A stretch of DNA of 9,032 nucleotides from a virus (taxonomy: Duplodnaviria > Heunggongvirae > Uroviricota > Caudoviricetes): the IMG/VR virus record IMGVR_UViG_2693429599_000008; one strand, written 5' to 3'. Positions 1,158 to 1,843 of this stretch are shown one piece after another. The notes beneath the pieces were generated by a model that saw only the letters and a list, made by a program, of their open reading frames with translations, was not told where the DNA came from and made no database searches. The first letter of the stretch is position 1. Each line of letters opens with the position of its first letter. Position numbers and translations under genes: made by a program.

Positions 1158-1427
1158 TTACTTCATCCCGCCAATATTTTCCCACGTCCCGTCAGCACGC
1201 AGAATTTGCAGCGGTCTTACCACGCACTGTATCTGCTTTTTATCTGCATCCAGTATCACCACCTGCGTGATTACCCTGTCCTGCTCCGGAATAATGCCAT
1301 TCTCATCTGACTCCAGAATGTCTGCCGGTCCCAGACGCAGTTGTGCTGTAAGTAACTCCCCGTGTTCACGGTCATCATGCTTTCCGTACCCGCACAGACG
1401 CTGCATAAGTTTTTTTAGTACGTTCAT
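1158..1427 (-). CDS. Hypothetical small protein X2 (89 aa), paralog of X1
   Basis: ATG at 1425-1427 preceded by AGGAG (revcomp of ctcct at 1435-1439). Start sits 1 nt after the X1 stop (TGAcATG). Shares the pattern 'RLGPAxIxExxxNGxxP...ITxxxxLDxxD...Q.Q....LQ....DG.W' with X1. Confidence 0.5.
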   Translation of the reverse strand: MNVLKKLMQRLCGYGKHDDREHGELLTAQLRLGPADILESDENGIIPEQDRVITQVVILDADKKQIQCVVRPLQILRADGTWENIGGMK

Positions 1428-1428
1428 G

Positions 1429-1740
1429 TCATTCTCCTGTTCTGCCTGTATCACTGCCCACTTCATCCAGCCCCTTAACATCCTGCCACGGCCCGTCACC
1501 AAACCTGACCTGCAAATGCTGAAACAGCCCCTGAACCTGTGTGGCATCTTTGGGGTCAAGAAAGGTCAGTCCGGTGATGAGCGCACCATCTGTACCCGGG
1601 AACCAGCCATTGCTGTTTGTCTCAATAATGCTCGCCGGCCCCAGACGAAAACGGATTTGTGTCTCCCCCGGGTCGCCCTTCGGTCCCTGAGGTCCGGTTG
1701 CCGGACAATGCCGGTACGCCGCCCGGGTGAACCTGAGCAT
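1429..1740 (-). CDS. Hypothetical small protein X1 (103 aa from internal ATG), paralog of X2; 5' end overlaps the lom-like remnant
   Basis: Open frame 1429-1791; ATG at 1738-1740 with only a weak SD (GGGA). Homology to X2 is clear from 'RLGPA' onward. Whether it is translated from this ATG is uncertain. Confidence 0.4.
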   Translation of the reverse strand: MLRFTRAAYRHCPATGPQGPKGDPGETQIRFRLGPASIIETNSNGWFPGTDGALITGLTFLDPKDATQVQGLFQHLQVRFGDGPWQDVKGLDEVGSDTGRTGE

Positions 1741-1843
1741 ATCCCACGGAAAATGCACCGTGTCCGTTTTCAGCCTGTGCAGGAAAGGCAATTCCTGCCA
1801 GCAGGGTAGTAAACAATAATATCGTTGCGTATAAATGCCGCAT
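1622..1843 (-). pseudogene. lom-like (Ail/Lom/PagC/OmpX family) 5' remnant: signal peptide and first strand only
   Basis: ATG at 1841-1843 preceded by AAGAGGT. Translation 'MRHLYATILLFTTLLAGIAFPAQA|ENGHGAFSVGYAQ' resembles the Lom precursor N-terminus (signal peptide, then S-x-GY). After about 40-50 residues the frame runs into X1 out of frame and stops at 1622; no beta-barrel body is present. Confidence 0.5.

Follow-up and report, generated by a model that had tools for sequence, protein, structure and literature searches.

Gene content of the locus upstream of nleB

The window, that is, the whole stretch of 9,032 nt that was analysed, carries two tandem small open reading frames, X1 and X2, upstream of a complete effector gene of the nleB family. 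The initial annotation had read this pair as candidate cargo or accessory genes of an effector-exchange locus. The features on which the following analysis is based are listed below.

1..981, minus strand: complete gene of an nleB-family (NleB2-type) T3SS effector arginine glycosyltransferase (Pfam SseK_NleB, E = 3e-181)
1112..1143, minus strand: intrinsic terminator hairpin with U-run, closing the stf-X2 unit (RNA fold; terminator annotation in phage 434)
1158..1427, minus strand: X2, an intact stand-alone gene of 89 aa with a PfC domain (ATG at 1427, TAA at 1158-1160)
1429..1701, minus strand: 3′ end of an EPclA-type stf, last 90 codons plus stop, the true content of X1 (collinear with stf; PF06820)
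1434..1438, minus strand: Shine-Dalgarno sequence AGGAG of X2, within the last stf codons (read from the sequence)
1622..1843, minus strand: lom stub ORF of 73 aa, stop TGA at 1622-1624, RBS AAGAGG at 1849-1854 (comparison with the L002 Lom; phrog_108)
1701..1702, no strand: deletion junction lom::stf, with 2-bp CC microhomology and 1,582 bp gone (blastn breakpoints and junction sequences)
1703..1740, minus strand: lom-derived, out-of-frame leader of X1, MLRFTRAAYRHCP, with the sole ATG of X1 at 1738-1740 (sequence)
1874..1893, minus strand: terminator hairpin between the J remnant and lom (terminator scan; an equivalent one is annotated in phage 434)
1912..2430, given as 1912-2550 in the list of neighbours, minus strand: 3′ remnant of J (central tail fibre) with the C-terminal receptor-binding domain (Pfam Ig_GpJ_C, E = 1.6e-39)

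The effector gene downstream of the X1/X2 pair scored 697 bits with the NCBIfam model NF011909 (cut-off 595) and showed 99.9% DNA identity to the annotated nleB2 of E. coli Z1323CEC0019 (hereafter L002). Other neighbours in the window, identified by Pfam and NCBIfam, are a truncated Rz, a lysozyme and a P21-type holin. Between X2 and nleB, the RNA of positions 1105-1160 (minus strand) folded into a hairpin with an 11-bp stem and a free energy of −20.4 kcal/mol (z = −3.3), and a terminator is annotated at the homologous position in the phage 434 record. A simple consensus terminator scan of the window missed this hairpin, probably since its U-run pairs into the stem. The terminator at 1112..1143 separates the tail-fibre module from the effector locus.

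X1 and X2 both carry the PfC domain of phage tail fibres

BLASTP comparison of X1 with X2 found 24 identical residues among 62 (39%), with 61% positives and an E-value of 3e-14, a similarity far above chance that bears out the common pattern (RLGPA..I.E...NG..P ... LD ... LQ ... DG.W) and the roughly 40% identity initially noticed by eye. Both proteins matched the Pfam family PF06820 (Phage_fiber_C, PfC) over the entire profile (positions 1-64 of 64), X2 with 123.3 bits (E = 5e-36, residues 28-89) and X1 with 127.1 bits (E = 3e-37), where the gathering score of the family is 25 bits. PF06820 is described as ‘putative prophage tail fibre C-terminus’. In agreement with this, X2 aligned at 89/89 positions with phrog_576 ‘tail fiber protein’ (E = 1.1e-59), and X1 matched the C-terminal ends of the long tail-fibre families phrogs 1658 and 366. 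The pair, previously regarded as unassignable to a family, consists of ordinary phage parts, namely tail-fibre PfC domains; the initial annotation had itself taken a match to a characterised tail-fibre family as incompatible with its novel-cargo reading. Nothing contradicts this identity or the anatomy of X1 and X2 given below.

Searches for other relationships of X2 were negative. PF06820 was its sole Pfam hit at E≤1, no chaperone family was found in Pfam, NCBIfam or PHROG at E≤1, and none of X1, X2 and the lom stub had a model in NCBIfam. A sequence search of the PDB returned nothing meaningful for X2 (best E-value 0.49), and an AlphaFold2 monomer based on a 15-sequence alignment reached a pLDDT of 53.9 and a pTM of 0.32, too poor for a fold search; structure prediction likewise failed for the PfC domain in a cryo-EM preprint on phage phi24B (10.64898/2026.04.10.717836). 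Taxonomically, the family of X2 is very narrow, comprising prophages of E. coli, E. albertii and Citrobacter rodentium. An HMMER scan of 1.84 billion representatives gave only 58 hits, mostly fragments, so that no deep alignment was possible, and a scan of 185,579 species-representative genomes gave only three loci.

X1 is a remnant of stf joined to lom by a deletion

In the window, the X1 frame is open over 1429-1791 on the minus strand and encodes 103 aa from the ATG at 1740 (X1 ORF, 1429-1740). Comparison with L002 by blastn showed that window positions 1-1702 correspond to L002 5002-6703 at 99.9% identity and positions 1701-2430 to L002 8286-9015 at 100%, with 1,582 bp missing in between and a 2-bp CC overlap typical of illegitimate recombination. 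All DNA matches to window 1000-2000, in complete E. coli genomes and phage records alike, end at window 1702. With this segment went the 3′ three-quarters of lom, the intergenic terminator between lom and stf, and the 1,037 nt at the 5′ end of stf, which encode PfN, PCoil and most of Col. At the junction, which reads GGTTGCC/GGACAATG (slash, breakpoint), lom, up to codon 48, is followed out of frame by the final 90 codons of stf. The suggestion that a deletion had fused the 5′ end of lom onto the X1 region was therefore correct.

The stf-derived part of X1 (1429-1701) is collinear with the 3′ end of stf in L002 (99.9%) and phage 434 (96.7%). It encodes ATGPQGPKGDPGET-QIRFRLGPA...TGRTGE-stop, in which five Gly-X-Y triplets precede the PfC domain and a short tail follows it, with no Met codon anywhere; the collagen tract directly N-terminal to PfC is (G)AT-GPQ-GPK-GDP-GET, followed by QIRFRLGPA.... 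Of the ~1,311 nt of stf, 273 are kept, and neither PfN (no PF08400 hit in Pfam) nor PCoil was found in X1. Compared with EPclA-type Stf proteins (ECs2717; 434 CPT_434_23; PMC3368898), X1 thus retains the last five Gly-X-Y triplets and the full PfC domain at 99.9% DNA identity, whereas PfN, PCoil, ~96 of the ~111 collagen residues and the native start are missing, and what is left lies out of frame behind the lom stub. X1 is a fragment of an EPclA/Stf family member and not a functional fibre. Its sole ATG is preceded by TTTTCCGTGGGAT, which contains no well-spaced Shine-Dalgarno sequence. Because this ATG belongs to lom DNA read out of frame and the remainder is the stf 3′ end, X1 is, judged from its sequence, an stf pseudogene fragment without a start codon of its own, and most likely it is not translated.

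The ORF in which the X1 frame begins, in another reading frame as had been noted, is indeed Lom-like and has its own strong RBS (ATG at 1843, AAGAGG at 1849-1854). It is composed of 48 native Lom residues, which take in the signal peptide and the first part of the barrel, and 25 out-of-frame residues from the stf collagen region. Accordingly, the stub is identical to the L002 prophage Lom through residue 48 and diverges thereafter, and matched the Lom family phrog_108 at profile positions 1-41 of 199 only. Unlike an intact Lom/Ail/PagC barrel, it lacks 159 of 207 residues, its remainder being out of frame; it gave no Pfam hit, neither Ail_Lom nor the eight-stranded beta-barrel family PF06316 being matched.

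The lom::stf junction was absent from the 5,426 complete E. coli genomes, and its exact 40-mer was absent from the 185,579 species-representative genomes, which indicates that the junction is private to the source of the window. Deletions of this kind nevertheless recur, as shown by other fusions of PfC to Lom, J or CII fragments among database proteins (P0082, P0120, P0064 and P0029). Moreover, in E. coli FORC 064, stf was truncated independently at another point and is annotated as a pseudogene, with X2 and nleB2 intact downstream.

In intact relatives the pair forms the end of the tail-fibre module

DNA matching the window was found in 785 of the 5,426 complete E. coli genomes, at a median of 12 places per genome, and in 297 phage records. 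In annotated relatives with J, lom, stf and X2, namely phage 434, E. coli L002, cdtI, BP-4795, Stx2 phage 1717 and Stx1_699, the order is J, lom, stf (~436-437 aa), the 89-aa PfC gene, a terminator and then the effectors. Hence what lies between lom and the effectors in intact prophages, a comparison that the initial annotation had proposed, is stf, the 89-aa PfC gene and a terminator; in all intact relatives examined the pair is the end of the tail-fibre module. In the podoviral Stx phages phi24B and AU6Stx1, the X2 gene directly follows a 645-aa collagen-like tail fibre within the tail cluster, and tail genes, not effectors, lie downstream.

A full-length copy of X2 was found in 295 phage records at ~90-99% identity. 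Its homologues include Sp5 ORF68 (ECs1229), 434 gp24 (CPT_434_24), phi24B ‘gp59’ and AU6Stx1 ‘atfT’, which have the same length as X2 and are 91-99% identical to it; the start 1 nt past the stf stop, the Shine-Dalgarno sequence and the terminator are also shared. The X2 gene itself does not differ from these stand-alone PfC genes; it is the context that differs, with the fibre gene truncated and the virion genes lost. The labels given to the gene are ‘phage tail fiber C-terminal domain-containing protein’ (PGAP), ‘tail fiber assembly chaperone’ (434), ‘alternate tail fiber tip, atfT’ (AU6Stx1) and ‘hypothetical’. The effectors following the same X2 vary between phages (nleB, nleC, nleG, nleH, cif or espV-like), and a protein 100% identical to X2 (P0001) occurs in another context with nleG genes next to it. 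X2 is therefore constant while the effectors downstream change, and its presence does not vary with the effector cassette.

The arrangement resembles that of stf-tfa in phage lambda, where, following J and lom at the right-hand end of the late operon, a fibre gene is likewise paired with a small downstream gene, and the PfN domain is common to EPclA and lambda Stf (PMC3368898). However, X2 is not Tfa-like but a paralogue of the C-terminal domain of the fibre, and neither fibre trimerisation nor infectivity on K-12 depends on its family (PMC3368898, PMC5155283).

X2 is under purifying selection and appears to be coupled to stf

To quantify the constraint on X2, pN/pS was calculated from Nei-Gojobori counts summed over all pairs of ten loci, these pairs being non-independent. 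The PfC domain of X2 (codons 28-89) had a pS of 0.145 and a pN of 0.0033, giving a pN/pS of 0.023, while the N-terminal 27 codons had a pN/pS of 0.33 and the last 90 codons/PfC of Stf 0.19-0.21. X2 is a real, constrained gene, the PfC domain of which is under strong purifying selection. No visible co-variation was found between X2 and the Stf PfC variants in these ten loci, a small and non-independent sample; phage 434 and phi24B, for example, have identical X2 proteins and different Stf PfC variants.

The initial description of X2 as an 89-aa frame with a good RBS was accurate, the RBS being AGGAG at 1434-1438. At 1431-1425 the sequence reads TGA-C-ATG, that is, the stf stop (1429-1431), one base and the X2 start, an arrangement also present in nine other loci. 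The segment GGAGAATGACATG, which spans the Shine-Dalgarno sequence, the stf stop, the one base and the X2 start, is kept in 9/9 loci retaining stf, and this conservation indicates translational coupling between stf and X2.

A second deletion has left a defective prophage

A second junction was found at 2430/2431, where a truncated Rz is joined to the last ~170 codons of J (Rz::J). The J remnant is 100% identical to L002 up to 2430 and diverges beyond it, and the match of the lysis cassette in other genomes begins at about window 2427. As a consequence of the Rz::J deletion all head and tail genes are gone, so that no virions can be formed and the fibre module is orphaned. The prophage is a decayed, doubly deleted, defective remnant beside nleB.

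Origin of the region and possible roles of X2

The region is very probably the decayed end of the tail-fibre module of a lambdoid prophage, in which X1 is a fragment of stf and X2 its intact partner. According to this explanation, the stf product of intact relatives is a trimeric, collagen-like side tail fibre of ~437 aa with the organization PfN-PCoil-Col-PfC (the ‘EPclA’ family), the C-terminal PfC of which serves as the trimerisation knob, and X2 is an old duplicate of this PfC domain that has its own short N-terminal helix. In intact phages X2 would be translated by coupling to stf, through the Shine-Dalgarno sequence inside the stf end and the ATG 1 nt past the stop, and would form a small oligomer of PfC accompanying the fibre; located at the tip or close to it, this oligomer would be a minor and dispensable accessory. 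In the window, the illegitimate 1,582-bp deletion has brought the final 90 stf codons out of frame behind lom codon 48, and after the Rz::J deletion the module has nothing left to decorate, surviving only as a passenger next to nleB, and perhaps as a source of sequence for recombination with related prophages.

Published work on the family bears on these steps. Ghosh et al. (PMC3368898) described the EPclA fibre (PfN-PCoil-Col-PfC) as a trimeric dumbbell, identified the isolated PfC as a trimerisation domain that renucleates the collagen helix, and obtained correct trimers with a folded collagen helix from recombinant EPclA made alone in BL21(DE3). In systematic knockouts of Sp5 assayed on K-12 MG1655, Mondal et al. 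(PMC5155283) found the fibre ORF67 to be essential and listed the 89-aa ORF68 as non-essential; any role of X2 is consequently conditional or invisible on K-12. Two peptides that are unique to the X2 homologue, VITQVVILDADKK and ADGTWENIGGMK, are listed for purified virions in the supplementary data of the cryo-EM preprint on phi24B (10.64898/2026.04.10.717836), at 3 counts each where fibre peptides reach 181; the entry carries the authors' tag ‘Spike or just gp59?’ and is not discussed by them. Taken together, the knockout, recombinant-fibre and virion data argue against an obligatory chaperone and are compatible with a minor virion accessory, a role to which they lend weak support. That X2 is such a minor virion-associated accessory would be the most likely of the roles considered, although we put it forward tentatively. 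More doubtful is the specific proposal that the 89-aa PfC protein, being neither a chaperone nor a spare cassette, is a minor virion protein which caps the side-fibre tip or mixes into it and in this way determines which hosts Stx-converting and effector-carrying lambdoid phages can infect. This tip role would explain the pN/pS of ~0.02 in the PfC domain of X2 versus ~0.2 in the fibre tip.

Two other functions within the fibre module have been attached to the 89-aa protein. An alternative fibre tip, arising through programmed +1 frameshifting at the stop of stf (‘atfT’ of AU6Stx1) or through recombination from a reservoir of a second PfC cassette (Mondal et al.), is unlikely. The frame of X2 is indeed +1 to stf and open for 44 codons upstream of the X2 ATG, and a slippery site and a pseudoknot are predicted in the AU6Stx1 record; yet Mondal et al. 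saw no frameshift signal and proposed ORF68 as an intragenomic reservoir for fibre variation (PMC5155283), the stop context GAA-UGA-C would allow only poor +1 re-pairing, and the RNA around the stf stop and X2 start was no more stable than shuffled sequences (z = +0.44; pseudoknots lie outside the method). In X2, a Shine-Dalgarno sequence and an ATG of its own are conserved, and its N-terminal segment is under purifying selection (pN/pS of 0.33). The literature found under ‘atfT’ or ‘alternate tail fiber tip’ consisted solely of unrelated papers on plants. Two recombinants support exchange between the paralogues: in L010/P0062, a natural in-frame recombinant, a ~540-bp deletion running from a GGACCGGCAG of the early collagen tract to RLGPAD in X2 has linked this tract to the X2 PfC through the shared GGACCGGCAG, and P0129 is the reverse hybrid, with the N-terminus of X2 and the PfC of Stf. 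Nevertheless, these recombinants are single cases, one of them at a contig end, and the pN/pS of 0.02 in the X2 PfC fits an expressed protein better than a silent cassette. Readthrough of the stf UGA into a fusion was rejected, as the in-frame continuation stops after ~17 codons. Rather improbable, too, is a tail-fibre assembly chaperone that templates or assists trimerisation of the Stf C-terminus and then leaves. It would agree with the position of X2 in the lambda tfa slot right after stf and with the annotation in 434, and homology to the trimerisation domain of the fibre could permit transient templating. Against it stand the trimerisation of rEPclA in BL21(DE3) and of isolated PfC without a partner, the dispensability of ORF68 where ORF67 is essential, the presence of X2-homologue peptides in purified phi24B virions, and a Pfam profile in which X2 matches PF06820 and no chaperone family.

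The remaining two readings concern X1 or the locus as a whole. Very unlikely is the view that the deletion made a new gene, with X1 expressed from the lom promoter and translated from the ATG at 1740 into a free trimeric PfC knob, as X2 may once have arisen. Loss of the lom-stf terminator should let lom transcripts read through X1 and X2, isolated PfC can trimerise, and the X1 frame is open from an ATG; but this ATG lacks a usable Shine-Dalgarno sequence and is situated inside the lom stub ORF in another frame, where it would be covered by ribosomes translating the stub. The uniqueness of the junction to the source sequence moreover gives no sign of retention by selection, and PGAP calls equivalent remnants pseudogenes. 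Finally, the proposal that X1 and X2 represent new cargo or accessory genes belonging to an exchangeable effector locus, functionally tied to the downstream T3SS effector, is hardly credible and can be regarded as effectively refuted. It draws only on position directly upstream of nleB, and is opposed by the tail-fibre PfC domains in both X1 and X2, the strong terminator between X2 and nleB, the combination of the same X2 with different effectors, and the stf-X2 pair inside the podoviral Stx tail cluster with tail genes downstream. The decayed tail-fibre module is accordingly retained as the explanation of the region.

Annotation of the locus and of the 89-aa family

The finding on X1 and X2 is already known biology and does not concern new effector-locus genes. 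X1 should be annotated as an stf pseudogene fragment and the ORF upstream of it as a lom pseudogene, while X2 should be named ‘phage tail fiber C-terminal domain-containing protein’. The proper entry for the prophage is that of a non-inducible remnant with two deletions, in which nleB is retained. The question of the role of X2 belongs to the whole 89-aa family and is not raised specifically by the window. Nearly 300 sequenced Stx and lambdoid phages and ~785 of the 5,426 complete E. coli genomes contain the stf-X2 module, which a single genome often carries in a dozen copies. Its 89-aa protein bears three incompatible annotations, with a chaperone, an alternate tip and a recombination reservoir as the ideas in the literature. 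It is a cheap and well-defined target for studies of host range in Stx phages.

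Variable N-terminus of X2 and detection of an X2 homologue in virions

Comparison of X2, the small PfC-domain partner of the side-tail-fibre gene stf, across ten loci found its PfC domain nearly invariant, unlike N-terminal residues 1-27 (window 1347-1427), which are Cys/His-rich and variable, with the variants LCGYGKHDDREH, LCGCGKHDDCEN and LCGHGKHDDRED. Residues 1-27 might bind metal or serve as a species-specific docking segment. The only structure that AlphaFold2 predicted here was a short helix at residues 3-11, with low confidence. Purified phi24B virions yielded two peptides unique to gp59, the homologue of X2; they are listed in the proteomics supplement (bioRxiv 10.64898/2026.04.10.717836), where the authors, whose search database included hypothetical gp61-gp59 frameshift fusions, tagged the entry ‘Spike or just gp59?’; the main text is silent on these peptides (10.64898/2026.04.10.717836).

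Recombination and distribution of the PfC unit

A natural in-frame stf::X2 recombinant was observed at positions 1-320 of the relative locus L010 (E. coli GCA_038404665.1, contig JAYDZQ010000147.1), in which a deletion removed ~540 bp between a GGACCGGCAG microhomology early in the collagen tract and the small gene's RLGPAD site. The contig begins within the recombinant gene, with the N-terminal part outside the sequence seen, and the deletion product would be a short-shafted fibre ending in an X2-type PfC.

A distant relative, P0145 (565 aa) and L013 (a Clostridiales MAG, 3001-3186), carries four PfC-like repeats in tandem (...VVVLDAD...ILRVRQADGTW.EIP..KG), and a long collagen tract comes after them. 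This arrangement suggests that the PfC unit occurs as a repeat module within Firmicutes phage fibres. One X2 copy, 91% identical, lies on a contig labelled Xanthomonas pisi DSM 18956 (L012). Because the distribution is otherwise strictly Escherichia/Citrobacter, this tiny contig (725 bp) probably represents E. coli contamination of that assembly.

State of the prophage and other genes

The following features were identified in the window:

2430/2431, Rz::J deletion junction (within 2387-2686 / 1912-2550), the second large deletion of the window
4840-5847 (-), DUF6645 protein, 335 aa, immediately upstream of the holin
6015-6227 (-), Hok/Gef ORF (Pfam HOK_GEF, E 1.6e-22)
6165-6340, sok antitoxin RNA (Rfam RF01794, 120 bits)
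6408-7094 (-), prophage-borne epoxyqueuosine reductase QueH gene
7248-8288 (-), DUF977 and DUF1627 genes, after the QueH gene
8249-8712 (+), DicB and DUF1482 genes, on the strand opposite to QueH

At the Rz::J junction, a truncated Rz lysis gene is joined to the 3' end of J, the central tail fibre gene, of which the final ~170 codons remain. The entire head and tail region was lost through this deletion, and the prophage is therefore a non-inducible remnant. Neither tRNA genes nor a Q antiterminator were found within the window.

The Hok/Gef ORF and sok RNA constitute a type I toxin-antitoxin locus, hok/sok, at 6015-6340 (-). The DUF6645 gene, annotated among relatives as DUF6645 or ‘SASA family carbohydrate esterase’, occupies the slot used in Stx phages by stx and the NanS-p esterase. 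Its product has an FVPFMTD.NGVN...EDPDIP..GYYG segment that, judged by eye, is similar to a peptide from gp84, the esterase that decorates the phi24B capsid.
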